Source: Chloroflexota bacterium
GTDB taxonomy: Bacteria; Chloroflexota; Limnocylindria; Limnocylindrales; CSP1-4
Assembly: GCA_042408925.1 (NCBI GenBank)
Contig: JBHOQO010000012.1
Span: forward strand, 106 to 64,105
Direction of reading: 5' to 3'
DNA length: 64,000 nt
The first letter of the stretch is position 1, and the number at the start of each line of letters is the position of its first letter. Below, piece by piece: positions 21,208 to 46,425 of this stretch. The notes under the pieces are model-generated. The model saw only the letters and a list, made by a program, of their open reading frames with translations, was not told the origin of the DNA and did not search any database. A program made the translations under genes and the position numbers.

Positions 21208-21786
21208 TCAGCGACCCGCTTCGATCACGAACCAGCGCGACGCGTCGTCGCCCGAGAGGCCGTGACGCGACTCCAGGCCCCGGAACGTCTCCTCCCCGCT
21301 GACGTCCACCGGGAGCTGGACGACCGAGCTGAAGCCGACCTTGATGAGGAGGGCGACGAGATCGGCTGCAGACCAGGGCGGCAGTGCCTTGAGACGGTCG
21401 AGCGAGAGCACGCCCTGGAGGGCGAGCCGGCGGACCTCCGCTTCCGCGACCGCCCGATCGCGGCCGACGAGCCGGAGTCGTCCACCGGGCGCAAGCACCC
21501 GGGCCGCCTCGAGGACGAAGGCGAGAAGACCCTCGCCCAGCGTGTCGGGGAGCTCCCAGGCGTAGATGCGATCGACACTCCCGTCATCGAAGGGGAGGGC
21601 GAGGCGCAGATCCAGGTCGAGGTCGCCAACCTTCGGATCTTGGGAGACGCGGATCCATCCGGGCAGGCGGACCTCGCCCGGACCAAGGTGGAGTCGGAGC
21701 GAGCGTTGGCCGCGATAGCGATCCGCGGCTTCGAAGCCGGCGAGATAGCGGAGCGGGTCGAAGGCAGGCCTCGGGGACGTGGTCAT
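21208..21786 (-). CDS. class I SAM-dependent methyltransferase-like protein (last gene of glycosylation operon)
   Basis: MTase fold motifs (LHLGPGEV..; FDDGSVDRIYAW..; RVLAPGGRLRLV); ATG overlaps upstream gene stop (ATGA). Confidence 0.5.
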   Translation of the reverse strand: MTTSPRPAFDPLRYLAGFEAADRYRGQRSLRLHLGPGEVRLPGWIRVSQDPKVGDLDLDLRLALPFDDGSVDRIYAWELPDTLGEGLLAFVLEAARVLAPGGRLRLVGRDRAVAEAEVRRLALQGVLSLDRLKALPPWSAADLVALLIKVGFSSVVQLPVDVSGEETFRGLESRHGLSGDDASRWFVIEAGR

Positions 21787-26022: not shown

Positions 26023-26217
26023 CGGTCTCCTCGTCGTTCCTCGATCGAGTCGTGGCGAGCGGGGACGGCGCGGGGCCCCGCGGTCGACCAATTCCACGCC
26101 ACAGGATGCGGCCGACGGGCGGGCGCGGCCAGACCCGACTTCGGGTAGGTGAAGACCCCGGGAGGCACCAGGTGTCCGCTCGCTCCGAGGCCGGCGGGCG
26201 GCGCCTCGGCGCACCAC

Positions 26218-31102: not shown

Positions 31103-32412
31103 CGAACTGATCGTACGTCGTCGCGCCCGCCCACCGCGACGTCCTTCGGCAGCGGGATCGAGATTCGGACCCGCGTTCCGGCACCGGGCCGGCTGTGGAT
31201 CTCGGCTCGCCCGCCGAGCCAGCTTGCCTGGCGCCGGAGTCCCTCGAGGCCCAGGCCGCCGCCGTCGCGCGACCTCGACTGCGGCTCGAAGCCGCGACCA
31301 TCGTCCTCGACGACGGCGACGGCGCGCGATCGGGCGACCATCAGCCGGACCGAGAAGCGACTGGCGGAGGCGTGATGGACGACGTTGCTCGCCGCCTCGG
31401 CGATCATCGCAAAGAGGGCCTGCTCCATCGCCGTCGGCAGTCGGGGCAGGTCGCCCTCGACGGTCCAGGCGAGGGCGGTGTCGCGGGTCAGCTGACGGAG
31501 TCGTTGCTCGACGGCGCGCCGGAGGCCGAGCTCCTCGAGCGCCGGCGGGGCGAGGCGCTCCAGGACGGTCCGGAGCTCGCCGATCGCGGTGGCTAGTCGG
31601 GCGCTCGCCTCGTTGAGGTGGGCCTGCGCTGCCGGCGGCATCGGCGCCGAGGCGAGCGCTGCCTGGAGGAACCGATGGGCCGATACGAGCGACTGGGTCG
31701 CCGTGTCGTGGATGAGGTGGGCGACCGCCGCCCGTTCGTTGGCTCGCGTCGACACGAGCTCGCGCGCGAGGCGGTCGAGCCGTCGCTCGGTCGTCGCGAG
31801 GCGCCGCCGCTGCCGCTCGGCAAGCCGCCAGTGCTCGAGGAGCTCGTCGCTCGTGGCGAGCATCTGGGCGATCGCCGCGGTCGCCATCCGTCGTCGCTCG
31901 GCCGCGGCGTCCCGGATCGACGCCTCCCAGGCGACGAGACGAGCCTCGTCCCGGAAGTGGTGGATCGCCGCCCACAGAGCGCTCGCACCAAACCGTCTCG
32001 CCGGTCGTGCGGCCCGCCGCAGCGCCACGACCGGTACCTGGATCGCGCTGGCAACTTCGGCCAGCCGGCGAGGGTCGGGACCGCTACAGCGGAGGACCGC
32101 GACGCTGCCGCGTGCCCCGCGCGGCGCCGGGAAGGCGAGGAGTCGGACGCCCGCCTGGCAGGGCATCGATGCCGGCCGACCCGTTGCTAGCACGCGGGCG
32201 ACGACCGCCGATGGGCAGCGCCGACAGAAGACGAGCCCGACGCTGGTCGTGCAGACGGCGGCGCAGAAGGGATGGGCGTCTTCCCAGCCCACGGCCAGCC
32301 GGGGGACGCCGGTCGCGGGGTCGGTGCGCCAGAGCTGTGCGGCATTGACCAGGGCCCCGACCGCACCGGGCGTCGGCTCGCCGTCCGGACGCTGGCTGGA
32401 TGGCGCCGTCAT
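31099..32412 (-). CDS. cytoplasmic sensor histidine kinase (HisKA_3 + HATPase) with Cys-rich PocR-like N-terminal sensor domain
   Basis: no TM helices; HPFCAAVC..FCRRCPSA Cys cluster; H-box ERAAVAHLIHDTATQSL; ATPase G-boxes (DDGRGF, GGLGLEGL). Confidence 0.75.
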   Translation of the reverse strand: MTAPSSQRPDGEPTPGAVGALVNAAQLWRTDPATGVPRLAVGWEDAHPFCAAVCTTSVGLVFCRRCPSAVVARVLATGRPASMPCQAGVRLLAFPAPRGARGSVAVLRCSGPDPRRLAEVASAIQVPVVALRRAARPARRFGASALWAAIHHFRDEARLVAWEASIRDAAAERRRMATAAIAQMLATSDELLEHWRLAERQRRRLATTERRLDRLARELVSTRANERAAVAHLIHDTATQSLVSAHRFLQAALASAPMPPAAQAHLNEASARLATAIGELRTVLERLAPPALEELGLRRAVEQRLRQLTRDTALAWTVEGDLPRLPTAMEQALFAMIAEAASNVVHHASASRFSVRLMVARSRAVAVVEDDGRGFEPQSRSRDGGGLGLEGLRRQASWLGGRAEIHSRPGAGTRVRISIPLPKDVAVGGRDDVRSVR

Positions 32413-32586
32413 CGCGACCGAGTATAGGGCCGCCCGACCGCCCCGAGCGGTCCCATCGCTGCCTGGTACGACCGGCGGTGTGATCTCCAGGAGGGTCCCG
32501 ATACGCGAGACGGCGGATTCGGCCGACCATCGCGCTGCACCGGCCTCGACCGGTTGGCGACCACGCAGGACAGGTAGGGAGCTTCG

Positions 32587-32988
32587 ATGAGCATCTTCGA
32601 CACGCTTCGAATTGCGGCATCTGGGCTCACCGCCCAGCGCCTCCGGATGGACGTCGCCGCCTCGAACATCGCGAACGCAGGATCCACCCACGGGCCCGAC
32701 GGCGCGCCGTATGCGCCTGCAGCAGTCGTCTTCGCGGCGACGCCCCTCGAGGAGGGGGCCGCGCCGGGCGTCGCCGCCGTTGCTGTGCCGGCCATCGGGG
32801 GGACGGTCCGGGTCTACGATCCCAGCCACCCCGACGCCGACGAGAACGGCTTCGTCTCCTACCCCGACGTCGACATCGCGGCTCAGGTCACCGACCTCAT
32901 CGGTGCCGCTCGCTCCTATAGCCTGAACGCCACCGTGACGGCGGCCGCCAAGCAGAGCGCGCTCGACGCGCTCGAGATCGGGCGATGA
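32587..32988 (+). CDS. flgC: flagellar basal-body rod protein FlgC
   Basis: MSIFDTLRIAASGLTAQRLRMDVAASNIANAGST.. and C-terminal NGFVSYPDVDIAAQVTDLIGAARSYSLN. Confidence 0.9.
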   Translation: MSIFDTLRIAASGLTAQRLRMDVAASNIANAGSTHGPDGAPYAPAAVVFAATPLEEGAAPGVAAVAVPAIGGTVRVYDPSHPDADENGFVSYPDVDIAAQVTDLIGAARSYSLNATVTAAAKQSALDALEIGR

Positions 32989-33368
32989 TCGGATCCCTCG
33001 GGCGGATCGACCGGATCGGCGGATCGGCGCCGTTCGCCCTCGATGGCGTGGCCGCCGCGCCGGCGGCCGTGAATCCGGCGTCGCCATCTCGTGTCGGGCG
33101 ATCGCCGCTCGATGGCGCATCCCCGGTTGGCGCTGTCGCGACGCGTGGCGAGTCGTTCCTCGACGCCCTCGCGAGCGCCGTCGAGCAGCTCAACGGCCAG
33201 CTCGTCGCAGCCGACGCTGCGGCGGCCGACTTCGCCGCCGGAGGAGCGACGGACCTCCACGACGTCGTCCTTGCGCTCTCCGAGGCGAGCATCGGCCTGC
33301 GGCTCGGCGTCAGCGTCCGCGACCGCCTCCTGGAGGCGTATCAAGAAATCATGCGGCTCCAGATCTGA
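32985..33368 (+). CDS. fliE: flagellar hook-basal body protein FliE
   Basis: C-terminal LHDVVLALSEASIGLRLGVSVRDRLLEAYQEIMRLQI typical of FliE. Confidence 0.85.
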   Translation: MIGSLGRIDRIGGSAPFALDGVAAAPAAVNPASPSRVGRSPLDGASPVGAVATRGESFLDALASAVEQLNGQLVAADAAAADFAAGGATDLHDVVLALSEASIGLRLGVSVRDRLLEAYQEIMRLQI

Positions 33369-33390
33369 GCTCGACTGAGATCGATCGACC

Positions 33391-35028
33391 GTGCTCGACC
33401 AGCTCACCCCCCTGCTCCGCCAGCTGACGGTTTCCCAGCGGATCGGCGTCGCCTTCGGGGCCTTTGCCTCGGTCCTCCTCCTCGTCGGCTTCGTCATCTG
33501 GGCCGGCCGAACCGAGTACCAACCCGCCTTTACCCGCCTCTCTGCCGGCGATGCGGCAGCGATCGTCGAGGCGCTCCGGGGTGCCAAGATCCCGTACCAG
33601 GTCACCGACGCCGGTTCGACCATCCTCGTCCCGGTGGGCTCGCTCGCCGATGCCCGACTTGCAGCAGCCTCGGCCGGCGTGCTGCCGGAAGACGGCACGG
33701 CCTTCGATCTCTTCGACAAGCAGGGCTTCGGTGCCTCCGAGTTCGAACAGACCGTCGCCTACCAGCAGGCCCTTGAGCGAAAGCTCGAAGCGACGATCCG
33801 CCGGCTGGCGGGGGTGGCCGATGCGACCGTCGCCATCGTCCCGAAGCGGCAGGGCGCCTTCACGACCGACGATCAGCCGGCCTCGGCCTCGGTGACGATC
33901 CGGATGCGGGACGGCGGCTCGCCGGACGGTGCGATGGTCCGCGGCATCGTGTCGACGGTTGCCGGGGCCGTCGCCGGACTGTCGCCGGAGAACGTCACGG
34001 TCGTCGACGAGCGCGGGCGCGTCCTCGCCGGTCCCGGTGCTGCGCCGGGTGCCGACGTCCTGGCGATGCGCGAGGCAGTCGAGCGGTCGCTGGCGGCCAA
34101 GGCGCAGCAGCTCGTCGACGAGGCCCTCGGTCCCGGGCGTGCGACGGTCGCCGTGACCGCCGAGCTCGACGCGGCGGCGGTCGAACAGACGATCACGACG
34201 GTCAAGCCGATCGACGCCACGAACTGGACCCCGGCCTCGGTCCAGACGATCGACGAGCGCTACACGGGGTCCGGCGCCGCCGGCGCCGCGGGCATCCCCG
34301 GGTCGGCCTCGAACGTGCCCGGCCTGCCGACGTATCCCATCAGCGGCATTCCCGGGCTCCAGGCCAGCCCGGCACCGAGCCCATCGCCCGGGACGGCGCC
34401 TGGCCCGAGCCCATCGCCCGGGACGAATCCGGCCTACCAGCGCACCCAGCAGACGGTGAACTACGCCAACAGCCAGACCGTCGAACGGGTCATCCGCCAA
34501 CCCGGGGCGATCGAGCGGCTCTCGGTGGCGGTCCTCCTCGATCAAGCTGCCCTCGGTTCAACCTCGCCGAGCGGGTTGGAGGCCGCCATCGCGGCGGCGA
34601 TCGGGGCGGACCCGCAGCGGGGGGATGTCGTCTCCGTCCAGGCTGTGCCCTTCGCAGCCGACTCGACCGGCGAGGCGAGCGAGGCCGGTCCGCTCGGGGA
34701 GCCCGGGTTCCTCGAGAGCGTCCTCGGGATCGCCTCCTCAGTCGTCGGGGTTCTGCTCGCGGCGCTCCTCCTCTTCCTCGTTTGGCGGAACCTGCGGGCG
34801 CTTCGCCAGCGGGCCGAGGAGGCTCAGCTCGGCGCGGCCCTCGCCGCCGGGCCGAGCGCCCGGGTGGAGAGCGAGGTGGCGGGCACGCTGACGGCGGGGT
34901 CGGGATCGACCCCAGCAGGCGATACCGCGGCGGCGATCGCTGAGCAGCTCCGTCACGTCGCCACCGACCGACCCGACGCCGTGGCAGGCGTCCTCGCGGG
35001 CTGGCTCTCTGAGGATGCGAAGCGATGA
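33391..35028 (+). CDS. fliF: flagellar MS-ring protein FliF
   Basis: N-terminal TM, YscJ/FliF ring domains, C-terminal TM and FliG-binding tail; Pro/Ser-rich linker. Confidence 0.9.
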   Translation: MLDQLTPLLRQLTVSQRIGVAFGAFASVLLLVGFVIWAGRTEYQPAFTRLSAGDAAAIVEALRGAKIPYQVTDAGSTILVPVGSLADARLAAASAGVLPEDGTAFDLFDKQGFGASEFEQTVAYQQALERKLEATIRRLAGVADATVAIVPKRQGAFTTDDQPASASVTIRMRDGGSPDGAMVRGIVSTVAGAVAGLSPENVTVVDERGRVLAGPGAAPGADVLAMREAVERSLAAKAQQLVDEALGPGRATVAVTAELDAAAVEQTITTVKPIDATNWTPASVQTIDERYTGSGAAGAAGIPGSASNVPGLPTYPISGIPGLQASPAPSPSPGTAPGPSPSPGTNPAYQRTQQTVNYANSQTVERVIRQPGAIERLSVAVLLDQAALGSTSPSGLEAAIAAAIGADPQRGDVVSVQAVPFAADSTGEASEAGPLGEPGFLESVLGIASSVVGVLLAALLLFLVWRNLRALRQRAEEAQLGAALAAGPSARVESEVAGTLTAGSGSTPAGDTAAAIAEQLRHVATDRPDAVAGVLAGWLSEDAKR

Positions 35029-36035
35029 CGACGACGGCGAGCCTCTCCGGTGCGAGGAAGGCAGCCGCCCTCCTCATCGCCCTCGGGCGAGACGCCGCGG
35101 CGCGGGTGCTCGCCCGGTTGCCGGCCGACGCCGTCGAGCGGCTGACGCTCGAGCTTCTTCGCACGCCGGCGCTCGACGCCGCCGTTCGGGACGCCATCCT
35201 GTCCGAGGCCCACGCCGACGTGTTCGCCGGGTCAGGGCTCATGCCCGCGGGCGAGACGTTCGCCTACGAGGTCGTCCGCGAGGCGTACGGACCGGATCTG
35301 GCCGAGGACGTCATCAGTCGGGTTCGCAAGGCCCAGATTCCGGCGCCCTTCGAGTTCTTGCGGGACGCCGATCCGAGCCAGGTGCGCGAGCTCCTGGCGA
35401 CCGAGCATCCCCAGACGATCGCCCTCGTCCTCGCCCACCTCGACCCGCGGAGCGCGGCCCGAGTCCTGACCGAGCTCGATGCGCCGCTCCAGGTTGACGT
35501 GGCTCGCCGAATCGCGATGACCGAACAGGTCAGCCCCGAGACGGTGGCCGTCGTCGAGGCCCAGCTGCGATCCCGAATGGCCGCCTTCGCGGCCGGCTCG
35601 ACGACGACGGTCGGCGGGGCACGGCCGCTCGCCCACGTCCTCAACCAGGTCGACCGCTCGACCGAGAGGCAGATCCTCGGTGGCCTCGCTGAGATCGATC
35701 CGGTGCTCGCCGACGAGGTCCGCCGCTACATGTTCGTCTTCGAGGACGTGCTCCTCCTCGACGACCGGGCGATGCAGCGGGTCATCCGCGAGCTCGACGC
35801 CAAGGACATCGCCCTCGCCCTCCGGGCGACGACCGAGGAGGTCAAGGAGAAATTCTTCAGCAACATGAGCCACCGGGCAGCCGAGATGCTCCGCGAGGAG
35901 ATGGAGCTCGCCGGCCAGGTCCGGATGAAGAACGTCGAGGAGGCGCAGGGCCGGATCGTCGAGGTGATCAAGCGCCTCGAGGAGCAGGACGAGATCGTCA
36001 TCAGCCGCGGTGGAGGGGGCGATGTCCTCGCCTAG
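35025..36035 (+). CDS. fliG: flagellar motor switch protein FliG
   Basis: FliG three-domain pattern incl. C-terminal torque helix region (..MSHRAAEMLREEMELAGQVRMKNVEEAQGRIVEVIKRLEEQDEI). Confidence 0.9.
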   Translation: MTTTASLSGARKAAALLIALGRDAAARVLARLPADAVERLTLELLRTPALDAAVRDAILSEAHADVFAGSGLMPAGETFAYEVVREAYGPDLAEDVISRVRKAQIPAPFEFLRDADPSQVRELLATEHPQTIALVLAHLDPRSAARVLTELDAPLQVDVARRIAMTEQVSPETVAVVEAQLRSRMAAFAAGSTTTVGGARPLAHVLNQVDRSTERQILGGLAEIDPVLADEVRRYMFVFEDVLLLDDRAMQRVIRELDAKDIALALRATTEEVKEKFFSNMSHRAAEMLREEMELAGQVRMKNVEEAQGRIVEVIKRLEEQDEIVISRGGGGDVLA

Positions 36036-36774
36036 GCGGATCCTCGTCGGGCGGCCGAGCGCGCGGAGCCGCGGCGTCATCGCGTCGGATGGCCCTGCCG
36101 ACCCCAGCCGGCCCGCCGTCGCACCCGAGTCCGGTGGCGGGATCGGCCGACCGAGCAGCAGCGCAAGAGGAGCGGGCGAGCTGCGGGCCGAGCGGATCGC
36201 GGCCGCCCGCGGGTACACCGACGGGCTCGCCCGCGGCCAGGCCGAGCTCGCCGCGGCGGTGGCGGCGACCGGCGCCCTGGCCGAGGAGCTCGAGCGTCTC
36301 GCGCCGCGGGACGTGGGACGCGCCGCGCTCGCCATCAGCCGCCTCGCCCTCGTGGTCGCCGAGCGGATCCTCGGCCGGGCGATCGCCATCGATCCGGACC
36401 TCCTCGTCTCGATCGTGGAGCGGGCGGCGTCGGCGATCAACGGTTCGCCGACCGCCCGGGTCATTCTTGCTCCCCAGGTGCGCCCCCACGTCGAGGCGGC
36501 CTGGATCGCCGTTCACGGCACGGCCTACCTTGGAAAGCGGTGGATCTTCGAGGACGACCCGAGCCTGTCGCCCGGTGGGTGTCGGCTCGTCTACGAGCAC
36601 GGCTTCGTCGATGCGTCGCTCGAGGCGCAGATCGAGGAGATCGGGCGGGCCATCGACCACGCCCTGCCGACGCTCCTCCGCGAGCTCGGCGAGCGCCCGG
36701 AGCGGGCCCAGGGCAACGGGCTGATCCCTGAGGGATGGGCCGCGGCGCCCGATGGAAGGACGGACACCAAATGA
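36010..36774 (+). CDS. fliH: flagellar assembly protein FliH
   Basis: FliH/YscL-like coiled-coil then C-terminal domain; overlaps fliG end and fliI start. Confidence 0.7.
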   Translation: MEGAMSSPRRILVGRPSARSRGVIASDGPADPSRPAVAPESGGGIGRPSSSARGAGELRAERIAAARGYTDGLARGQAELAAAVAATGALAEELERLAPRDVGRAALAISRLALVVAERILGRAIAIDPDLLVSIVERAASAINGSPTARVILAPQVRPHVEAAWIAVHGTAYLGKRWIFEDDPSLSPGGCRLVYEHGFVDASLEAQIEEIGRAIDHALPTLLRELGERPERAQGNGLIPEGWAAAPDGRTDTK

Positions 36775-38138
36775 GCGTCTCGACCCCGCCCCGCCCGTCC
36801 GGCATCCTCGACGGCCCGGTCTCGCCGCTCGTCGAGCGCCTCGAGCGCCTCGTCCGCGAGCTGCCGACGTTCGTCCCGTCCGGAGCGGTCACCCGGGTCG
36901 TCGGGACGACGATCGAGGCCGAGGGTCTCCTCGTCCAGATCGGCTCGATCTGCTGGATCGAGACCGAATCGGCGGGTCTCATCAGTGCCGAGGTCGTCGG
37001 TTTCCGAGACGGCCGGATCACGCTCGTCCCGTTCGGCGACGTCGTCGGCGTCCGGCCGGGCTCCCGGGTCCGCCTCCGAGCGGAGCAGTTTCGGGTCCCG
37101 GTGGGGCCGCGCGTCCTGGGGCGCGTTCTCGACGGCTTCGGTCGGCCTCTCGACGGCCGGGGACCGCTCGACGCCGAGACCCGCGTCGTCGGCGGCGCCG
37201 CGCCACATCCGCTCAACCGAGCCCGGATCGAGACGCCGCTCTCGACCGGCGTTCGCGCCATCGACGGCTGCCTGACGGCCGCCAAGGGTCAGCGGCTCGG
37301 CATCTTCGCCGGCTCGGGGGTCGGCAAGTCGACGCTCCTGTCGATGATCGCTCGCCACGCCGCAGCGTCGGTCAATGTCATCGCCCTCATCGGCGAGCGG
37401 GGCCGCGAGGTCCAGGAATTCATCGACCGTCACCTCGGGCCCGACGGCCTCGCCCGGTCGGTGGTCGTCGTGGCGACGTCGGACCAACCGGCGCTCCTGC
37501 GGGTGAAGGCGGCGGAGGTGGCGACGGCGATCGCTGAATCGTTCCGCGACGACGGCGCGGACGTGCTCATGGTCATGGACTCGGTAACTCGGCTCGCCAT
37601 GGCCCAGCGGGAGATCGCCCTCGGGGCGGGGGAGCCTCCGGCACTCCGCGGCTATCCGCCGTCGGTCTTCGCCTATCTGGCTCGGATCCTTGAGCGGGCG
37701 GGGAACACCGACCGCGGCACGATCACCGGCTTCTACACCGTCCTCGTCGAAGGAGACGACCTCTCGGAGCCGGTGGCCGACAGCGTCCGCTCGATCCTCG
37801 ACGGCCACATCGTCCTCGCCCGGGCGCTCGCGGAGCGGAACCACTATCCGGCCATCGATGTCCTCGCCTCGGTCTCGCGGGTCATGCCGGCTGTCACCGA
37901 CGAACGCCACCGCCGCCTGGCCGGGGCGCTGCGGGCGGCGCTGGCGATCTACGAGGAGTCGCGCGACCTCATCGAGGTCGGTGCCTACGCCGCCGGGTCG
38001 AACCCCGAGCTCGACCGGGCGATCGCGCTCCGGCCGGCCATCCTCGCCTTCCTCCAGCAGGGGCCCGACGAGCGCTCCGACCTCGCCGACGCGGTCGCCC
38101 GGCTGGAGGCGACCGGGGTCCTTGAGGGTGCTGCATGA
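36771..38138 (+). CDS. fliI: flagellum-specific ATP synthase FliI
   Basis: Walker A GSGVGKST, Walker B VLMVMDSVTRLAMAQREI, FliI/YscN N-terminal beta-barrel. Confidence 0.95.
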   Translation: MSVSTPPRPSGILDGPVSPLVERLERLVRELPTFVPSGAVTRVVGTTIEAEGLLVQIGSICWIETESAGLISAEVVGFRDGRITLVPFGDVVGVRPGSRVRLRAEQFRVPVGPRVLGRVLDGFGRPLDGRGPLDAETRVVGGAAPHPLNRARIETPLSTGVRAIDGCLTAAKGQRLGIFAGSGVGKSTLLSMIARHAAASVNVIALIGERGREVQEFIDRHLGPDGLARSVVVVATSDQPALLRVKAAEVATAIAESFRDDGADVLMVMDSVTRLAMAQREIALGAGEPPALRGYPPSVFAYLARILERAGNTDRGTITGFYTVLVEGDDLSEPVADSVRSILDGHIVLARALAERNHYPAIDVLASVSRVMPAVTDERHRRLAGALRAALAIYEESRDLIEVGAYAAGSNPELDRAIALRPAILAFLQQGPDERSDLADAVARLEATGVLEGAA

Positions 38139-38587
38139 GCGCCGACCGACTGGCGACCGTTCTCCGCCTCCGCCGGCTCGAGGAGCACCGGGCCCGACTC
38201 GCGCTCGCGCGGGCGCTCGGCGACCACGACGCCGCTCGCCGCCGACTTGCAGTGGCTCGGGCCGAACAGGCGGCCGCCACGGCCGGACTCCGATCGCTTC
38301 TGGAGGGTCGAGTCCCGATCGCTGAGGTGGCCGCGCGCACCGCGGCAGTCGAGGTCGGCGAGCGGAATCGGGCGGTGGCCGAGGCGAAGGTCGAGGCGGC
38401 GCAGCGAGTGGTGGCCGAGGCTCGCGAGGCGCTCGCCACGGCGATCCGTCGTCGGAACGCCGTCGAGCGGCTCCGCCAACGGCGCCTGGCCGAACGGCGC
38501 CTGGCCGTTGAGCGGCGGTCCGAGCGCGAGCTCACCGAGATCGCCCTCGTTCGCCACGCGCGAGCCATCGCTGAGCGGATGGGTTGA
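38135..38587 (+). CDS. fliJ: flagellar export protein FliJ
   Basis: 150-aa coiled-coil, position after fliI, Arg/Glu/Ala-rich FliJ-like. Confidence 0.7.
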   Translation: MSADRLATVLRLRRLEEHRARLALARALGDHDAARRRLAVARAEQAAATAGLRSLLEGRVPIAEVAARTAAVEVGERNRAVAEAKVEAAQRVVAEAREALATAIRRRNAVERLRQRRLAERRLAVERRSERELTEIALVRHARAIAERMG

Positions 38588-39711
38588 GGTTGGGTGCAAT
38601 GTCCACCGCGATCGCTGCCATTGCCAGCCGGGTCCGCGAGCTCGACACGCTCCTCAGGCAGATGGGGCGCCTGTCGTGGTCTGGTGCCGAATCCGTCGCG
38701 TCGGCCACGGCGCTCGTATCGCCCTGGCCGTCCAAGGACCCGGCCGGCGCCGGTCGCCGCGTGGGGGCGGTCGTGACGACCGTGCCGTTCGCAACGATCA
38801 TCCGGAACGTCGCGTCCGATGTCGCCGGCGAGGGGGGCTCGGGGGTCGTCGTCAAGCCCGTCGTCGGCGGGCGGATCACGCAGCGGTTCTCGCGTCCGGC
38901 GGCCGACGGCCTGCGCGGCCACGAGGGGTTGGACATCGCGGCACCCCTCGGGACGCCGGTCCGCGCGCTGGCCGCCGGGACGGTTCGCTTCGCCGGCGTG
39001 GCCCCCGACGGTGCCGTCGTCGTTCGGATCGAACACGCCGATGGGACCGAGACGCTCTACGGCCACTTGCAACCCGGTCTCGGGGTCCGAGCGGGTGATC
39101 GGGTGGCAGCGGGAACGACCATCGGGCGGATCGGGCTTACCGGCCGAACCACTGGACCGCATCTCCACCTCGAAGTCCGGGCCGGCGGCAGGCCGATCGA
39201 CCCCGAGCCGATCCTGGAGAGCGGCCGACTCCCGGGGAGCCTGCGGGCCCTCGGTGCCGAGCAGCTGGGCCGGATCGCCCTCCGCCGCTTCGATGCGATC
39301 GCCGAGCGCATCCCGTATGCCGCGGAGATCCGCACCGCGGCGGTCGACGCCGGGATCGATCCGCTCCTCCTCGCGGCCCTCGTGCGCACCGAATCGGGCT
39401 TCCGTACCGACGCGGTCTCGCGGGCTGGGGCGATGGGGCTCACCCAGCTCATGCCGGCCACCGCCCGGGCGCTTGGCGTCGACGACCCCGTTGATCCGGC
39501 GGCGAACCTCGATGGCGGCGCCCGCTACCTCGCCGGCAACCTCCGAATGTTCGGACGTGTCGACCTCGCCCTCGCTGCCTACCACGCTGGCAAGGCGGCC
39601 GTCCGACGGGCGGGCGGCATCCCCGACTCGCCGGTGACGCAGGCGTACGTCGCCCGGGTGCTCGAGACGTGGGCTGGCTATCTCGCCGCAGCGGAGGAGC
39701 AGGACCGATGA
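38584..39711 (+). CDS. flagellar-operon peptidoglycan hydrolase: M23 (LytM) peptidase domain fused to lytic transglycosylase (SLT) domain; functional FlgJ analogue
   Basis: M23 motifs HEGLDIAAP..GHLQ..HLHLEV; SLT motifs TESGF..AMGLTQLMP..AAYHAG. Confidence 0.8.
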   Translation: MRLGAMSTAIAAIASRVRELDTLLRQMGRLSWSGAESVASATALVSPWPSKDPAGAGRRVGAVVTTVPFATIIRNVASDVAGEGGSGVVVKPVVGGRITQRFSRPAADGLRGHEGLDIAAPLGTPVRALAAGTVRFAGVAPDGAVVVRIEHADGTETLYGHLQPGLGVRAGDRVAAGTTIGRIGLTGRTTGPHLHLEVRAGGRPIDPEPILESGRLPGSLRALGAEQLGRIALRRFDAIAERIPYAAEIRTAAVDAGIDPLLLAALVRTESGFRTDAVSRAGAMGLTQLMPATARALGVDDPVDPAANLDGGARYLAGNLRMFGRVDLALAAYHAGKAAVRRAGGIPDSPVTQAYVARVLETWAGYLAAAEEQDR

Positions 39712-40169
39712 GGATCGACGACGCAACTGGGCGGCTCTTAGCGACCGCCCTCGATGGCCTGGCGAGCCGCCAGGAGGCGATCGCCGCCAACCTAGCGAAC
39801 ATCGACACGCCCGGCTACGCGCCGCTGGCGGTCGACTTCGAGACCGCGCTCCGGGCCCAGATCGAGGCGGCGAACGGCGGTTTCGCTCCTCTCCAGCCGC
39901 GACCTCCGACCCTCGGGTCGTCCGCCGACGAAGGGCCGTCCCGGATCGATCCCCGCCACCTCGCCGGGGTCGCCTCGCCGGCCGGTGGCGTCGAGGTGTC
40001 CATCGTCCCGCGACCGACGGTCGAGGCCGGCCGGAACGACCGCAACACCGTCGATCTCGAGGCCCAGGTCACCGGGCTCGCCGAGACGCAGCTTCGGTAC
40101 GCGGCGGTCTCGCGGCTCATCAGTCTTCGCCTTGGGATGCTCCGAGACGTCGTTGGAGGTCGGTTCTGA
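39708..40169 (+). CDS. flgB: flagellar basal-body rod protein FlgB (displaced from the usual flgB-flgC position)
   Basis: LDGLASRQEAIAANLANIDTPGYAPLAVDFETAL.. and C-terminal RNTVDLEAQVTGLAETQLRYAAVSRLIS. Confidence 0.85.
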   Translation: MRIDDATGRLLATALDGLASRQEAIAANLANIDTPGYAPLAVDFETALRAQIEAANGGFAPLQPRPPTLGSSADEGPSRIDPRHLAGVASPAGGVEVSIVPRPTVEAGRNDRNTVDLEAQVTGLAETQLRYAAVSRLISLRLGMLRDVVGGRF

Positions 40170-41791
40170 TGCAGATCGTTCGCGTCCCCGAGACGCACGT
40201 CGTCCCCGGAGGGCTCGTCGCCGAGGCCGTTGGGTTTCCAGTGGAGGCGCTCGGCGAGGCGTCCGAGGCGACGGCGGTGGCGGTACCGGCCGAAGCGCTC
40301 GCGGATGCGCCGGAGCGGGCTGGTCCGTCCTCGACAGGCCGGCCTGCGCGAGAGAGTGGTCGAGCTCGTGGCCGATCCAGCGGTGGAGACGAGGCCGACG
40401 TCGCGCCCAGTCTCCCGGCCACCCTCGCCCCCTGGCTCGGTGCCGGCCCAGCGTCCGGTGCCGGGGCAGGGCGAGTGGGAACATCCGGCGATACGGACGG
40501 GGCCGTCTCGACCGATTCGGCGGCGGCCTCGGCCACATCGCGATCGCAGCCGGATGGTCGGGATGGCCTGGCTCACTGGCTCGCGATGGTCGTTCCGAAC
40601 TGGGCACTCGGCGTCTCGGCGGTCGCTCCGGTGGCCGTCGCGGAATCGGAGCAGCCGGAGCTGCCCGCCGGCGTCCCACTGGAGCAATCCGACGTCGTCG
40701 GGTCGGACGAAGCGCACGGCCTCGCGGTCATCCGAACGCCGACCGAGGCCGCCGGACGTCTTCGGTCCGCCGCCGTCGGCAGCGAGATCGTTCCGGCAAC
40801 GCCGTCGCCGGCTGAGGACGTCGCCCCGGCGCCAGGGACACTCGTGGATCGAGTCGTCGGCGAGCCGGCGGCGATGCCGGGCGCCGGGACGGGCGAGGCA
40901 GTACCCGAGGTCCGGGTCGCCCCGGCCGATGCCCTCTTGAGCCAGGGCGCGCCTCCGACAGTGGCGGAGACGCCCACCCCGATACGGCAGACGACGCGTC
41001 CGCCGGCCGACGCGCCGCCCGGCGAGCTTGTTGCGCCACCCCCCACCGACCCGCGACCCCGCCTGCGGGATGGAGCCGAGGCGCTCGAACCGCGTCGACC
41101 GGACACGGACGGCGCCGCGACGTCCAGCGCCCGGAGCGGCGACCTGCAGGGACTGGCCCGGCCGGCTTCGACCGACGCCGCTCCGCCGCCGGTCGTTGCG
41201 CCGGCGGCTGTTCGGGCGTCGGGGCCATCGGTCGTCCGGGACGCCGGACCGTCCGATCCGACGGCCGCCGCCGATCGGCTGCTCCGGTTCGTCGCCGAAC
41301 GGATCCACGTTGCCGTCGGGGAGCGACGGCCTGCCCTTGAGGCCCGGTTCCACGACCCGGCACTCGGTCCCGTGCGGCTGTCGGTCAGCGGTCTGCCAGA
41401 CGGCCCCATCGCGGTGACGATCATCGTCACCATCGCGCGGGCCGCCAGAGCCATCGAGCGCGCGGCGCGCGAGGCGCACGCCGACGGTCAGGCGCCTCTC
41501 GCCGGGATCGACCTCCGGATCCGGACCGAGGTCCCGATCGGCGGGCCGCCGGCGGTCGAGCCCCGGCCGAGCGAGCATCGATTTCCCGGCTCCGGCGGGG
41601 CGGGAGATCCGAGCCTCACGACCAACGCCGGCCCGGGCCGTCAGGGTGGGGGGCACGGCGCACCAGCCGAGGCGTCCCTTGCCCCGCCGATCGCGAGCAG
41701 CAAGACGGGGCGGGGCGCGCGGACCGCGGTTCCTGCCCCGGCGACGCTGCGCCCACCAGGCGCGCCCGGCACCCTCGATCTCCGCCTCTAG
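40169..41791 (+). CDS. fliK: flagellar hook-length control protein FliK (Pro/Ala-rich, low complexity)
   Basis: position fliJ..fliK-flgD-flgE; C-terminal FliK-C-like segment (LRFVAERIHVAVGERRPALEARFHDPALGPVRLSVSG). Confidence 0.55.
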   Translation: MQIVRVPETHVVPGGLVAEAVGFPVEALGEASEATAVAVPAEALADAPERAGPSSTGRPARESGRARGRSSGGDEADVAPSLPATLAPWLGAGPASGAGAGRVGTSGDTDGAVSTDSAAASATSRSQPDGRDGLAHWLAMVVPNWALGVSAVAPVAVAESEQPELPAGVPLEQSDVVGSDEAHGLAVIRTPTEAAGRLRSAAVGSEIVPATPSPAEDVAPAPGTLVDRVVGEPAAMPGAGTGEAVPEVRVAPADALLSQGAPPTVAETPTPIRQTTRPPADAPPGELVAPPPTDPRPRLRDGAEALEPRRPDTDGAATSSARSGDLQGLARPASTDAAPPPVVAPAAVRASGPSVVRDAGPSDPTAAADRLLRFVAERIHVAVGERRPALEARFHDPALGPVRLSVSGLPDGPIAVTIIVTIARAARAIERAAREAHADGQAPLAGIDLRIRTEVPIGGPPAVEPRPSEHRFPGSGGAGDPSLTTNAGPGRQGGGHGAPAEASLAPPIASSKTGRGARTAVPAPATLRPPGAPGTLDLRL

Positions 41792-41803
41792 GGAGGACAC
41801 AGC

Positions 41804-42274
41804 ATGGCCATCGACGTTCGAATGCTCGCCGGAAGCAGCGGACTCCTCGGCGACCCGATCCTCGCTTCGCTCGGCTCCGCGCTCGGGCCGGGTGCGTCCC
41901 GGATCGACCGCGGGCGCGACATGAGCGACATCTTTGGGCTCGGGCGCGACGACTTCTTTCGGCTCTTCCTCGCCCAGCTCCGGAACCAGGACCCGACCAA
42001 GCCCCTCGAGGATCGCGACTTCGTCGCCCAGCTTGCGCAGTTCACGCTCATCGACACGATGCAGGAGGTGAAGCGGGTCCTGAACGCCGGGTCGCTCGCC
42101 CAGGCCGCGGCACTCATCGGCCGGACCGTCGTCGGCTCGACCGAGGATGGTCAGCCGGTCGAGGGCGTCGTCGACCGCGTCGTCCAGAGCGAGGGGGCCG
42201 TCGCCCTCGCCGTCAACGGGCTCCTCGTCCGGCCGGAGTCGGTCACCGTCGTGGCCGACCCGCCGGCGAGCTAA
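41804..42274 (+). CDS. flgD: flagellar hook assembly protein FlgD
   Basis: LGRDDFFRLFLAQLRNQDPTKPLEDRDFVAQLAQFTLIDTMQE core FlgD motif; GGGAGGA RBS. Confidence 0.85.
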   Translation: MAIDVRMLAGSSGLLGDPILASLGSALGPGASRIDRGRDMSDIFGLGRDDFFRLFLAQLRNQDPTKPLEDRDFVAQLAQFTLIDTMQEVKRVLNAGSLAQAAALIGRTVVGSTEDGQPVEGVVDRVVQSEGAVALAVNGLLVRPESVTVVADPPAS

Positions 42275-42327
42275 GCCGATCCATTCACGTCACGACCGGC
42301 GCAGGTCGTGAGCCACCACTGAAGGAG

Positions 42328-42750
42328 GTGATGCGTACGCCCATCCATCGCACCGTCGGATTGCCAGTTGCGGTCGCCCAGATCGAGTCGTCGGATCCCG
42401 TCCGTCCGCTTGGTCCACACGGGACCGGCCCCGCCCGCGGCCGGCACCGACCCCAGGACGCGGACTTCGCGGCGACCCTCGCTGCGGAGGAGCGCCGCTC
42501 GATCCAGTGGTCGGCCCACGCGAGCCACCGGCTCGAGCGACGGGCCATCGACCTCGATGCGGCGCAGCTCGATCGGCTCGAGCGGGCCGTCGAGCTCGCG
42601 TCGGCCAGGGGTGGCCGGTCGTCGGTCGTCTGGCTCGACCGGATCGCCTACATCGTCGACGTTCCGTCGGGCACGGTCATCACCGCCGTCCGCCCGGACC
42701 AAGGAAGGGAGGCCGTCTTCACGAACATCGACAGCGTCGTCATCGCCTGA
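42328..42750 (+). CDS. flagellar operon protein of the TIGR02530-like family (between flgD and flgE)
   Basis: ~140 aa, conserved position in Firmicute-type flgD-X-flgE; pattern F...L.......S.HA..RL..R.I.L....L..L..AV..A. Confidence 0.45.
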   Translation: MMRTPIHRTVGLPVAVAQIESSDPVRPLGPHGTGPARGRHRPQDADFAATLAAEERRSIQWSAHASHRLERRAIDLDAAQLDRLERAVELASARGGRSSVVWLDRIAYIVDVPSGTVITAVRPDQGREAVFTNIDSVVIA

Positions 42751-42888
42751 ACGCTCCGACCGAGCCGGCGGCGTGCCGGCGACGGAGGACCCGGATCTCG
42801 CCGGACCTCGTGCAGGAGGCGACTCGGGTCGGGCAGGGGCCCTGCCCATCCCACCAAGCCATCGACGCAACCTGGGAGGTCACGAACT

Positions 42889-44118
42889 GTGCTTCGATCG
42901 ATGTTCTCGGCCATCAGCGGCCTGCGCAGCCACCAGGTCATGATGGACGTCATCGGCAACAACATCGCCAACGTCAACACCGTCGGCTTCAAGGCCGGGC
43001 GGGTCAACTTCCAGGACACCCTCTCCCAAACGTTCCGTGGCGGTGCTGCTCCGAACGGAACGCTCGGCTCCATCAACCCCGCCCAGGTCGGGCTGGGGGT
43101 AACGGTCGCCGGCATCGACGTCCTCCACACCCAGGGCAACCTCCAGGCGACCGGTCGCCTGACGGACCTCGCCATCCAGGGTGACGGGTTCTTCGTCATG
43201 TCGAACGGTCCGCTTACGTACTACACGCGGGACGGCGCCTTCGACATCGGGCTCGATGGCTCGCTCCTCAACCCCGCCTCGGGCCTCCGCGTCATGGGCT
43301 GGCAGGCGGACAACGCCGGCGTCGTCGACACGACGGCCCCGGTCGGCCCCTTGACGATCCCCCTCGGGCGGCGGACGACGGCCCTCGCCTCGTCGTCGGC
43401 GGTCGTTCAGGGCAACCTCGATGCCCGGGCCGAGGTCGGCGATACGGTTTCGACGACCCTTAGCGTCTTCGACTCGCTCGGCACCCGCCACCCCATCAAG
43501 ATCACCTTCACGAAGACGGCCGCCAACGAGTGGAGCTGGTCGGCTGCGGCCGACCCGTCCGACCCGGGGACCTCGACGTCGAGCAGCGGGACCATCACGT
43601 TCACTTCGGCGGGACAGTTCGCCAGCGTCAACACGACGACCCTCTCGATTTCCCTGACGAATGGCGCCGGGAGCCCGCTCGTCGTCGATCTCGACTTCAC
43701 GAAGATGAACCAGTACGCCGGGGCGAGCCAGGTCTCCGGCGTCGCCGACGGCTTCAGCTCGGGCACGCTCGTGACGTTCTCGATCGGGTCGAGCGGTGAG
43801 ATCACCGGGGTCTATTCGAACGGGCAGACCCAGACCCTCGGCCAGATCGCCCTCGCCACGTTCACGAACCCCGGCGGTCTCCTCCGCGCCGGCCAGAACC
43901 TCTTCCAGGCGTCGTCCGCGTCCGGCGATCCGCTCGTCGGCGTGCCGGGAACGGGTGGCCACGGGAATGTCACGACCGGCGCCCTGGAGATGTCAAACGT
44001 CGACCTGGCAACGCAGTTCACCGGGATGATCACCGCCCAGCGCGGCTTCCAGGCGAACGGACGGGTGATCACGACCTCGGACGAGATGCTCCAGGAGCTC
44101 GTCAACCTGAAGCGGTAG
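42889..44118 (+). CDS. flgE: flagellar hook protein FlgE
   Basis: N-terminal MLRSMFSAISGLRSHQVMMDVIGNNIANVNTVGFK and C-terminal GALEMSNVDLATQFTGMITAQRGFQANGRVITTSDEMLQELVNLK. Confidence 0.9.
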   Translation: MLRSMFSAISGLRSHQVMMDVIGNNIANVNTVGFKAGRVNFQDTLSQTFRGGAAPNGTLGSINPAQVGLGVTVAGIDVLHTQGNLQATGRLTDLAIQGDGFFVMSNGPLTYYTRDGAFDIGLDGSLLNPASGLRVMGWQADNAGVVDTTAPVGPLTIPLGRRTTALASSSAVVQGNLDARAEVGDTVSTTLSVFDSLGTRHPIKITFTKTAANEWSWSAAADPSDPGTSTSSSGTITFTSAGQFASVNTTTLSISLTNGAGSPLVVDLDFTKMNQYAGASQVSGVADGFSSGTLVTFSIGSSGEITGVYSNGQTQTLGQIALATFTNPGGLLRAGQNLFQASSASGDPLVGVPGTGGHGNVTTGALEMSNVDLATQFTGMITAQRGFQANGRVITTSDEMLQELVNLKR

Positions 44119-44238
44119 GGATCCGCCGGTCCGTCGCGCCCGGTTCGGTCGCGCCCGGCGAGGAATCGGACCGGGCCGGCGGCCGGAGATCCACCGCCGC
44201 TTCGCTGCGATGCCCAACACGGTAGGAGGCACGACCCG

Positions 44239-45513
44239 ATGGGACGACTCGACCCCAACAGCCTGGCGACGCCGGGCGGCTCCAGCCGATCCCGGCCAAC
44301 GACCGGGCGCCGCGCTCTCCTTGCCCACGCGGCATCCACGCCCGGCGGCACGGTCCGGCGTCGCGGCTGCCCGCCGCGCCGGGCCGCGGCCGCGTTCGCC
44401 GGCATGGCCCTCGCCGTCGGCCTCCTCAGCGGCCTGGCGGGTGCTCGCCCGGGACCGACGCTCGCCAACGGCATCGGCGACCTGTACGCGGCGACGACCG
44501 GCGGCGTCGCCGAAATCCTCGTCGCGAGCGGGGAGGTCCTGGCGACGGTGCCGCTCCAGCCTCCCCCGACCGCTCTCGCCTTCGCGCCCGACGGGCGGAC
44601 GCTCTTCACCGTCACCGGGAGTCGGGCGCTCCAGCCGATCGACATCGAGACGCTCGAGACCGCCGCGGCGATCCCGCTGCCCGGTGCCGCCGTGAGTGTC
44701 GCCCATCCGAACGGGGAGCGCGTCGTCGTTGCCCTTGCCGGAGACCGTCGACTGGCGATCGTCGATCGGAGCTCCGGATCCGTTGCCCGAAGCGGGGAGC
44801 TCCCCGGCCCGCCCGACCTGTTGGCCGCCGACCGACGACACGAGCTGGTCGCCGTCGCGGAGAATGGGAAGTCCTGGGTCGGGCTCCTCGACGGCGAGGC
44901 GCCGCCCCGGACGGGCACCGTCGAGGGGCGGATCACGGCCATCGCCGTCTCGAGCGACGGCGCGGCGTACGTCGCGACTCGTGTGCCCGCCAGTGTCAGT
45001 CGAATCTCGCTCCGAGACCTCGCCGTCGAGCGGGTGGTCAGCCTGCCCGCCTCGCCGGACGCGATTGCGGTGGTCGCCGACGGCGTCGTCGTGGCGAGCG
45101 GCCGGACGCTCTGGTGGCTCGACCGCACGGGACCGCGCCAGTGGCGGACGACCCAGGCGCCGGTCACGGCCCTCGCGGCGAGCGACGATGGACAGGTTCT
45201 CTACGCGGCGACGCAGGGGGCGATCGAGGCGTTCGTCGCGCGTGGCGATGGCTCGGTGCGGATCACCCTCGAGGTCGGCTTGGGCCCGGCGGTCCTGGCG
45301 CCGGTGCCCCGTCCGGCGTCGCTGACGGGAGTCGGCGGAACGGGAGAGCCTGGCACCTCGCCTGGCGAGGCCGGCCGAGCCCCAGCGACGAACACGGAGG
45401 GAGCGGCCACAGGCGCCGCTCTCGACCCGTTGCCGATCGTGCTGGTGGTCCTCGTCGTCCTCCTCGTGGCCGGCGTCGGCGCCCGTCGGATCGTCGGCGC
45501 CCCGTCAGATTGA
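44239..45513 (+). CDS. secreted YVTN-type beta-propeller repeat protein with C-terminal TM anchor (hypothetical)
   Basis: repeating ~40-aa units (..LYAAT..G.V..I......V..V.....P..LAF.PDG..L.V); C-terminal hydrophobic LPIVLVVLVVLLVAGVGA. Confidence 0.5.
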   Translation: MGRLDPNSLATPGGSSRSRPTTGRRALLAHAASTPGGTVRRRGCPPRRAAAAFAGMALAVGLLSGLAGARPGPTLANGIGDLYAATTGGVAEILVASGEVLATVPLQPPPTALAFAPDGRTLFTVTGSRALQPIDIETLETAAAIPLPGAAVSVAHPNGERVVVALAGDRRLAIVDRSSGSVARSGELPGPPDLLAADRRHELVAVAENGKSWVGLLDGEAPPRTGTVEGRITAIAVSSDGAAYVATRVPASVSRISLRDLAVERVVSLPASPDAIAVVADGVVVASGRTLWWLDRTGPRQWRTTQAPVTALAASDDGQVLYAATQGAIEAFVARGDGSVRITLEVGLGPAVLAPVPRPASLTGVGGTGEPGTSPGEAGRAPATNTEGAATGAALDPLPIVLVVLVVLLVAGVGARRIVGAPSD

Positions 45514-45636
45514 GATCCGCTCAGACCCGGTTCCGGGCCCCCACAGCCGCCGCCAGCGCCCAACGGGCCGCCCGTCCGGCCCCACCGGGGCGGCGGTGGT
45601 CGCGGCGATGCGTCGCTCTCGACCCACGCTTCGGCA

Positions 45637-46425
45637 CTACAGGAGGCCATGGTGGGCAGCGAACACGACCGCCTCGACCCGGCTCCGGGCCCCCAGCTTA
45701 CGCTCGATGTTCTGGATGTGGTTGCGCGCCGTGAGGGGGCTGATCGTCAGCCGCTCCGCGATTTCCCGCGTCCCCAGCCCCATCGCCATGAGGCGGAGAA
45801 CCTCGAACTCCCGGCGCGAGAGCGGTCTCGGGACCGGGGGGACGGCGTCCGGGGGGACGGTGGCCTCGAGACGCCCGCTGGCCGATCCCGGCAGTGCGCT
45901 CGATCGGCTGTTGCCGCTCACTGGGCGGACCATGTGGAGGAGGTAGCTCGGCGCCCCGTCGTCGTCGGGAGCGAGGACGATCGAACTCGACACGAGGATT
46001 CGATCGTCTTCGCTCGTGCGGGCCACGATCTCGTAGCTCTCGGTAGGACGGCGCCGCCGGGCGTTTCGGACGACCCGGCAATCGCGACGACAGACCGGGT
46101 GACCGTCGGGCTCGGTTCCTGCCATGACCTCGTAGCAGCGGCGTCCGATGACCTCGGCGGCCCGGTGGCCGAGGAGGCGCTCGGCGGCAGGCGACCAGGC
46201 GACGATGCGCTGGCGCTCGTCGGAGACGAAGAGCGCCTCCGCCGACTGGAGCCCCCGCAGCCACTCGACGACGGTCGCCGCGGCTGCGGACGCGGATCGG
46301 GGCGGCACAGCGACCGATTCGACGAAGGTCGTCGACGCGGCGTCCGCGACCAGGCGACGGTTGGCTCGAGTTCGCATCGGCAGATCGATTCCACAGCGGC
46401 CGGGGACGCACCACGAGGCTAGCAC
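45637..46425 (-). CDS. PAS-domain LuxR-family transcriptional regulator with Cys/His cluster
   Basis: PAS-like LFVSDERQRIVAWSPAAERLLGHRAAEVIGRRCYEV..HPVCRRDCRVV; C-terminal LuxR HTH LSRREFEVLRLMAMGLGTREIAERLTISPLTARNHIQNI. Confidence 0.65.
   Translation of the reverse strand: MLASWCVPGRCGIDLPMRTRANRRLVADAASTTFVESVAVPPRSASAAAATVVEWLRGLQSAEALFVSDERQRIVAWSPAAERLLGHRAAEVIGRRCYEVMAGTEPDGHPVCRRDCRVVRNARRRRPTESYEIVARTSEDDRILVSSSIVLAPDDDGAPSYLLHMVRPVSGNSRSSALPGSASGRLEATVPPDAVPPVPRPLSRREFEVLRLMAMGLGTREIAERLTISPLTARNHIQNIERKLGARSRVEAVVFAAHHGLL

Follow-up and report, generated by a model that had tools for sequence, protein, structure and literature searches.

How the flagellar rod passes through the thick wall of monoderm bacteria is under active debate (PMC13584718), and the Chloroflexi, which have no L and P rings, appear to be monoderm (PMC6169038). 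A stretch of 64,000 nucleotides from a Chloroflexota bacterium (GTDB lineage Bacteria; Chloroflexota; Limnocylindria; Limnocylindrales; CSP1-4; GenBank assembly GCA_042408925.1, contig JBHOQO010000012.1, positions 106 to 64,105 of the forward strand), here referred to as the window and with a G+C content of about 72%, raises this question in a concrete form: between fliJ and flgB of its flagellar operon lies a gene for a protein that joins an M23 peptidase domain to an SLT domain. Is this protein dedicated to the flagellum, what would it cut, and by which route would it reach the rod? [quoted passage not shown] Because the synteny of the gene is strictly conserved in more than 10 independent loci, a flagellum-dedicated role in rod passage is the best reading of the locus. 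The fusion as such is not new. The same fusion was pointed out in Thermomicrobium roseum trd_A0646 by Wu et al. in 2009, who proposed the same role (PMC2615216), and the window gene is an orthologue of it; an experimental study of any family member, be it by enzymology or genetics, was not found in the literature. Thus, the window gene mainly confirms a known fusion, and what is added here is an N-terminal module that spans phyla and a series of architectures built upon it.

The open reading frame (ORF) at 38584-39711 on the plus strand shows the distribution of G+C over codon positions that marks real genes, with a GC3 of 0.86. A first-pass annotation, made from the sequence alone, had read it as a protein of 375 residues; the frame is real, but the start had been set five residues too far upstream. 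As judged from the sequence, translation almost certainly begins at the ATG at 38599 and yields 370 residues, since this codon is preceded by a GAGG at 38586-38589 with a spacer of 9 nucleotides and since the homologues, which start with MS(D/E/T)xxxA(V/I)AxR, align their first methionine with it (alignment A1). The TTG at 38584 is located 15 nucleotides 5' of this ATG, overlaps the fliJ stop codon and would add the five extra residues. Residues of the window protein are numbered according to the 370-residue form unless the 375-residue form is stated. The gene and its parts are:

38599 to 39711, plus strand: M23-SLT lytic-enzyme gene, 370 residues with N-terminal module, M23 and SLT (from the ORF, the homologue alignment and the domains)
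38599 to 38850, plus strand: N-terminal module, residues 1 to about 84 (from alignment A1, the AlphaFold model, hydropathy and hhalign)
38917 to 39204, plus strand: Peptidase M23 domain of the LytM-type zinc endopeptidases, residues 107-202 (PF01551, E=2.5e-29 in this numbering)
39331 to 39621, plus strand: SLT domain of the family-1 lytic transglycosylases (goose-lysozyme-like), residues 245-341 (PF01464, E=4.2e-24 in this numbering)

The first-pass annotation had proposed an M23 domain with HxxxD and HLH motifs and a C-terminal SLT domain with TESGF and AYHAG motifs, and had named a domain search with hidden Markov models as the way to check this. In this search both domains scored well above the Pfam cutoffs: Peptidase_M23 (PF01551) with E=2.6e-29 and 101.7 bits against a cutoff of 28.7 (residues 112-207 in the 375-residue numbering, profile positions 2-96 of 96), and SLT (PF01464) with E=4.3e-24 and 84.8 bits against a cutoff of 21.3 (residues 250-346 in the same numbering). 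The predicted motifs are found as H113-EGL-D117 and H193-L-H195 in the former and as T-E270-S-G-F and A-Y333-H-A-G in the latter, again in the 375-residue numbering. PF01551 is likewise matched by all 24 members of alignment A1. Accordingly, the notion of a protein with two catalytic domains held up with respect to the catalytic residues, which are intact in both domains; in addition, the protein carries a conserved N-terminal module.

In the M23 domain, the zinc ligands H108-x3-D112 and H190 (as part of H188-L-H190) are present together with the catalytic histidines H156 and H188; in the SLT domain, the key residues are the catalytic E265-S266, G280-L-T-Q283-L-M and A-A-Y328-H-A-G. In an alignment of 122 sequences, consisting of the window protein, the T. 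roseum protein and 120 relatives, H108, D112, H156, H188 and H190 are kept in every sequence without a gap at the respective column (the H108 and D112 columns are missing in one fragment), and E265, S266, Q283 and Y328 are invariant. The AlphaFold model of the window protein (mean predicted local distance difference test score, pLDDT, of 83) comprises two confidently modeled domains at about 85-208 and 220-369, the second of which is the folded SLT domain and reaches the stop codon at 39711. Searches with Foldseek and phmmer matched the M23 part to the active enzymes StM23, NMB0315, ShyA, LytM and zoocin A and the SLT part to transglycosylases of the Slt/MltF type; model and matches confirm the fold of the M23 part. 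Based on the family match and the zinc-binding and catalytic residues, the M23 domain is predicted to be of the catalytically competent type and to act as an endopeptidase, and the SLT domain, based on its match and motifs, would be a family-1 lytic transglycosylase. The bond that the latter cleaves is likewise a prediction, as it is not fixed by the Pfam label: in PrgK, which has a similar LytM-SLT layout, LytM has no activity and the "SLT" domain proved to act as a muramidase (PMC11323569).

The example of PrgK also raises the possibility that the M23 domain has a regulatory and no catalytic role, that is, acts as a LytM factor in the manner of EnvC, NlpD or the LytM domain of PrgK that tunes or restrains the SLT domain, so that glycan cleavage alone would make the hole. 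The LytM domain of PrgK is degenerate and down-regulates its SLT domain (PMC11323569), the Foldseek matches to the M23 part include the LytM domains of EnvC and DipM, which are non-catalytic, and the domain is dispensable in some operons and absent from the SLT-only versions that serve in other phyla (both described below). Degenerate LytM domains have, however, lost their zinc ligands, whereas here the ligands and the catalytic histidines are conserved in every sequence of the alignment that has no gap at the column concerned, a degree of conservation that is hard to explain without catalysis; in addition, the nearest sequence matches, NMB0315, StM23 and zoocin A, are active enzymes. Since the residues are conserved and the model and structure matches lead to active enzymes, a degenerate, solely regulatory domain of the PrgK kind is argued against, and we regard this explanation as quite improbable.

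Whether the enzyme belongs to the flagellum is addressed most directly by its position. The neighboring genes and the operon are:

38135 to 38587, plus strand: fliJ (TIGR02473 with E=4e-13 and 50.0 bits, which just misses the cutoff of 50.45; PF02050 with 29.3 bits against 28.4)
39708 to 40169, plus strand: flgB, proximal rod protein (TIGR01396 with 69.5 bits against a cutoff of 59.05)
32587 to 45513, plus strand: surrounding operon with flgC, fliE, fliF, fliG, fliH, fliI, fliJ, the lytic enzyme, flgB, a fliK-like gene, flgD, flg_new, flgE and a gene for a 424-residue protein

The placement between fliJ and flgB, which had already been proposed, was thereby borne out by the family models. The end of fliJ and the ATG at 38599 are separated by 11 nucleotides, and the flgB start ATG and the lytic-enzyme stop codon overlap (ATGA); the lytic-enzyme gene is translationally coupled to fliJ on its 5' side and to flgB on its 3' side. 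A further flgB was not found in the cluster; flgB is displaced from its usual place before flgC.

A protein search yielded 741 relatives at E<=1e-5 among the candidates scored, which were derived from metagenomes. All of the 120 relatives listed contain both PF01551 and PF01464, and most of them are 330-480 residues long. Among species-representative genomes, full-length relatives were found solely in three metagenome-assembled genomes (MAGs) of Chloroflexi or Chloroflexia (L005-L007). The placement of the locus in Chloroflexota is based on these relatives, on the T. roseum orthologue and on the higher identity that the window's other flagellar proteins have to these loci. The order fliJ-X-flgB-fliK-flgD-(flg_new)-flgE, in which X is the lytic-enzyme gene, occurs in every locus with enough flanking DNA, at 43% to 66% identity of the relatives; these are L001 and L003, further L005-L007 from Chloroflexi MAGs, L085 on the T. 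roseum megaplasmid, and L087-L089, the relatives of which share 43-57% identity with the window protein. The full operon order is as in the window in L001, L003, L005-L007 and L085, and L001, L003 and L087-L089 have kept the 4-nucleotide overlap of X with flgB. In all of these loci, and in L095, flgB directly follows the lytic-enzyme gene instead of preceding flgC. The description of the architecture as uncommon was therefore overstated, given its publication for trd_A0646 in 2009 (PMC2615216), the more than 700 metagenomic relatives with two domains and the occurrence of M23-SLT tandems in phages and on Rhodococcus plasmids.

The closest described counterpart is the T. roseum protein itself (WP_012642874.1, 327 residues), which has the same architecture with M23 at 84-178 and SLT at 205-301 and is 49.6% identical to the window protein over the catalytic part. 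Its gene on megaplasmid NC_011961.1 occupies the same slot within flgC-fliE-fliF-fliG-fliH-fliI-fliJ-X-flgB-fliK-flgD-flgE. In both features that characterize the trd_A0646 type the window protein corresponds to it, as an N-terminal region, M23 and SLT are accommodated within about 330-480 residues and the gene lies between fliJ and flgB. The T. roseum protein differs in its shorter and divergent N-terminal region, in which the ARIxQLD helix described below is not obvious, and in being encoded on a megaplasmid.

This conservation also bears on the trivial explanation that the gene encodes an autolysin with general housekeeping tasks in growth, division or wall turnover, which is located in a flagellar operon by chance. 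Enzymes of the M23 and SLT families are mostly housekeeping enzymes, and the NCBI label of the relatives, "peptidoglycan DD-metalloendopeptidase family protein", is generic. On the other hand, the fliJ-flgB slot with its overlapping stop and start codons is kept down to 43% identity and across classes, the proteins have neither the Sec signal nor the membrane anchor that housekeeping autolysins need, and the N-terminal module was encountered almost exclusively in proteins encoded at this operon slot. A housekeeping enzyme thus appears to be very improbable, far more so than the regulatory role of M23 discussed above.

The N-terminal module consists, according to the AlphaFold model, of an amphipathic helix at residues 2-23 and a short helix at 64-75, between which residues 26-62 have a pLDDT below 50. 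In alignment A1, it is marked by a helix with the motif A-x-x-R-I/V-x-Q/E-L-D (ARIxQLD), followed by a variable, disordered linker of low complexity and the motif (P)F-A-x-V-L. The first 25 residues of the family form a charged amphipathic helix, and the conserved part as a whole amounts to two short helices of about 35 residues. A Kyte-Doolittle scan of 24/24 family members and 17 related ORFs revealed neither a Sec signal nor a transmembrane segment. In the window protein, residues 52-68 form an RR-hydrophobic stretch, which was considered as a Tat signal and dismissed, as it is not conserved in the family. When the module alone was used for a profile search against 1.84 billion representatives, 22 matches were obtained, mostly to the same family or fragments thereof; three long coiled-coil or TPR proteins among them were rejected as spurious. 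The small number of matches is explained by the module being too short and too low in complexity for wide detection. It was found almost solely in proteins of the fliJ-flgB operon slot and may do the targeting or export job of the enzyme.

[quoted passage not shown] The window protein resembles it as a wall-lytic enzyme that is encoded in a flagellar operon and has no Sec signal, FlgJ acting at the rod tip after export by the T3SS. As had been stated in the first-pass annotation, the FlgJ rod-capping domain is missing: a match to Rod-binding (PF10135) was not obtained at E<=5 in any of 34 proteins, which comprised the window protein, 23 relatives, the T. roseum orthologue and 9 SLT-only proteins. 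The comparison of a FlgJ N-terminal profile with the N-termini of the family by hhalign gave a probability of 0.1%, the FlgJ profile being narrow and built from mostly enterobacterial sequences. Homology of the N-terminus to FlgJ was rejected, as both the Pfam search and hhalign were negative. PF01832, the GH73 glucosaminidase domain, was not matched either. As both domains that define FlgJ were tested and are absent, the M23-SLT protein is not a member of the FlgJ family. Further differences to FlgJ are the presence of SLT instead of GH73, of two catalytic domains instead of one, and the position of the gene next to fliJ and flgB, while E. coli flgJ resides in an arrangement of the flgH-flgI-flgJ-flgK type.

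The protein might still be a true functional equivalent of FlgJ. In this case, the N-terminal module would be a cap or scaffold of the rod that has diverged strongly, binds rod proteins such as FlgB and is required for the rod to polymerise, and the enzyme would stay tethered at the rod tip instead of being released. Among the ORFs of the window that were scanned, none encodes a Rod-binding protein, and flgB has moved next to the lytic-enzyme gene in all loci of the Chloroflexota type, which is suggestive of, but no proof for, such a connection; moreover, the module is conserved across phyla, largely disordered as is the FlgJ N-terminus, and not accompanied by a Sec signal. Against this stand the negative results for Rod-binding in the 34 proteins and for the enterobacterial FlgJ N-terminus in hhalign, as well as the modest size of the conserved part, two short helices of some 35 residues. 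A rod cap therefore seems unlikely to us, if clearly less so than a regulatory M23 domain.

For the flagellum-specific lytic enzyme that we favor, export as an early, rod-type substrate of the flagellar T3SS is the most likely route by analogy, based on the missing Sec and Tat signals, the parallel to FlgJ and the translational coupling to fliJ and flgB. SltF and BB0259, which are stand-alone flagellar transglycosylases, use Sec signals (PMC8517470).

The distribution of the N-terminal module extends beyond the M23-SLT proteins. A genome scan identified SLT-domain matches in Solirubrobacterales, Acidimicrobiia, Egicoccus, other Actinomycetota, Fimbriimonadia and a Vampirovibrionales MAG (L008-L056). 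When these loci were searched with the flagellar proteins of the window, the corresponding genes proved to reside in flagellar operons, 3' of fliI and 5' of flgD/flgE, and the ORFs of 190-300 residues lack M23 and a signal peptide and have the same two N-terminal motifs. Their SLT part shares 50-63% identity with that of the window protein, and hhalign aligned the N-termini of M23-SLT and SLT-only proteins with a probability of 91.6% (E=8e-7); the 46 aligned columns include both motifs. In seven of the SLT-only loci, from Actinomycetota and Fimbriimonadia, a flgB match precedes flgC. Thus, the SLT-only proteins resemble the window protein in module, SLT domain and operon slot and differ in the missing M23 domain and, in the seven loci, in the position of flgB. 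Since proteins of other phyla share both the N-terminal module and SLT, these two form, as read from the sequences, the conserved core of the family, and M23 is an optional insertion in the middle that is typical of Chloroflexota.

Variation in the middle part is also observed closer to the window. P0256 (L095) has the N-terminal module and SLT and no M23, and its operon has the Chloroflexota-type order fliJ-X-flgB-fliK-flgD-flg_new-flgE. In P0263 (L093), the gene for which sits between a C-terminal fragment of FliJ and an N-terminal fragment of FlgB, a domain of about 170 residues with invariant Cys117 and His223 is located between the module and SLT; the gene for its close relative P0249 (L091) comes after fliI-fliJ. 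This domain yielded no Pfam match in P0249 and P0254, and a phmmer search of PDB with P0254 returned nothing. A model of P0263, built from 3 sequences and with a pLDDT of 46, was matched by Foldseek to the papain-like peptidases Alr0975 and C39-like 3erv at E of about 3e-3, so that a papain-like peptidase is only a lead for the modeled domain. P0254 and P0262, which have the N-terminal module and an unassigned domain and no SLT, are encoded on short contigs without flagellar neighbors and were not counted as flagellar. Taken together, the variants suggest a modular design, in which the N-terminal address and the head that cuts glycan stay constant and the head that cuts peptides is optional and exchangeable. 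It might further be speculated that the N-terminal module is an unrecognised, phylum-spanning cassette for T3SS export or rod targeting in monoderm (Terrabacteria) flagella, which brings interchangeable wall-cutting heads to the rod tip, be it SLT alone, M23 with SLT or a papain-like domain with SLT; we consider this idea to be tentative and somewhat doubtful, albeit a little more plausible than the rod cap.

Taken as a flagellum-specific enzyme, the protein might function as follows. Through translational coupling to fliJ and flgB, it would be made together with the proteins of the export gate and the proximal rod, and the flagellar type III apparatus would then export it as an early, rod-type substrate, with the conserved and partly disordered N-terminal module as the putative element for export or targeting. 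Where the nascent rod ends, the SLT domain would cut the glycan strands and the M23 zinc endopeptidase the peptide cross-links, and both cuts together would produce a hole through which the rod can pass. The enzymatic activity, the bond specificity, the export route, the localization at the rod and the need for the enzyme in flagellation are all predicted properties in this scheme. By analogy, the enzyme would work like FlgJ, or like SltF and FlgJ together.

A number of points weigh against this scheme. The hydrolase activity of FlgJ is not strictly required in Salmonella, and B. subtilis builds its flagella without a dedicated hydrolase (PMC13584718); deletion of the gene might, for both reasons, result in a partial phenotype only. 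T. roseum, the carrier of the founding member, has been described as non-motile (PMC2615216). Some operons that are otherwise identical have no M23 (P0256 in L095), so that the peptidase activity would be inessential to the core function. Pfam labels do not determine the chemistry, as illustrated by PrgK (PMC11323569), and the proposed export route hangs solely on the missing signal peptide.

Several known systems provide a frame for the predicted function. SltF of Rhodobacter/Cereibacter sphaeroides, PleA of Caulobacter and BB0259 (LTaseBb) of Borrelia have an SLT-family domain and serve the passage of the flagellum through peptidoglycan; they differ from the window protein in being Sec-exported or lipoproteins, in originating from diderms and in lacking M23. 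Among the NCBIfam models, BB0259_flg_lyt (NF047373) is the best domain-level match of the SLT part with E=2.5e-25, while the full-length model is not reached (89.4 bits against a cutoff of 234), as profile positions 547-652 of 705 alone align. SltF and BB0259 have been reported to interact with single-domain FlgJ (PMC8517470). One class of FlgJ pairs its flagellar role with a peptidase domain, according to 2006 work as it is cited in PMC13584718.

The order of M23 followed by SLT is also that of PrgK of pCF10 (LytM-SLT-CHAP), of Rhodococcus plasmid proteins and of phage tape-measure or ejection proteins. These modules share the logic of the window protein, in that a thick wall is breached at one site with two bond specificities, and an exchange of the M23-SLT module between wall-crossing machines is suggested. 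They belong to other machines, namely type IV secretion systems and phage tails, and have no flagellar N-terminal module; PrgK is, in addition, membrane-anchored with a degenerate LytM domain, while the M23 site of the window protein is intact. Among the plasmid matches (H2-H13), a plasmid-borne phage tape-measure protein of Bacillus pumilus was observed with 45% identity over M23 and SLT, along with many Rhodococcus plasmid proteins. PDB contains a cyanophage pre-ejectosome (9k2v), separate chains of which are similar to the model or the M23 domain, and a tape-measure protein (9b45) that is similar to the SLT domain.

With regard to the question of rod passage, Chloroflexota hard-wire a lytic enzyme with two predicted activities into the core flagellar operon, and MAGs of Actinomycetota, Armatimonadota and Vampirovibrionales do so with an SLT-only version. 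The genes are concrete targets for genetics in other monoderm lineages, and the natural series of SLT alone, M23 with SLT and another domain with SLT offers a handle on the contribution of each activity. If the N-terminal module were indeed an export or targeting cassette, many monoderm lineages would, unlike B. subtilis, use a dedicated T3SS-exported lytic enzyme for their thick wall, and the module would functionally replace the cap domain of FlgJ.

The operon begins with flgC at 32587, beside a divergent pair of a HisKA_3 kinase and a GerE response regulator, and the "flg_new" protein between flgD and flgE corresponds to TIGR02530. Terminator-like sites were not detected on the plus strand in 32200-45700, and the scan for promoters and terminators was otherwise uninformative. 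The rest of the window contains most of a monoderm-type flagellar regulon with flbD, motAB, fliL, fliM, fliN/Y, fliOPQR, flhBA and fliA, and also one FlgG-like rod gene, flgM, flgKL, fliW, flagellin, fliS, fliD and flaG. Some of these genes were confirmed by Pfam or NCBIfam; flbD, motA, motB, fliM, fliN/Y, fliQ, fliR, flhB, flgK, flgL, flagellin, fliS and fliD were named from N-terminal translations and gene order.

In the fliK position, at 40169-41791 on the plus strand, a Pro/Ala-rich protein of 540 residues is encoded, which has no match in Pfam or NCBIfam, including the C-terminal Flg_hook domain of FliK. With its equivalents in L001, L005 and L007 it shares only one conserved stretch of about 86 residues, and the length of the protein ranges from about 470 to 1122 residues across related loci. 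The 424-residue protein directly 3' of flgE (44239-45513, plus strand) has weak beta-propeller matches in Pfam (YNCE, WD40) and a hydrophobic C-terminal segment. It is kept after flgE in L001 (87% identity), L003, L005 and L007, and in T. roseum its place is taken by a class F sortase and a beta-helix protein. The 424-residue protein may represent an accessory of these monoderm-type flagellar motors that has not been described so far.

Between fliW/csrA and the glycosylation-like genes, at 21166-23960 on the plus strand, there are three consecutive putative ORFs of 258, 428 and 236 residues without a Pfam match. Beside the flagellin gene (26349-27182), a gene at 24970-26217 on the minus strand, which is also adjoined by an unannotated ORF at 23840-24973, encodes a protein that matches PF03214, "reversibly glycosylated polypeptide", with E=3e-54. 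This family is mainly a plant family, and the protein may be an enzyme of flagellin glycosylation.

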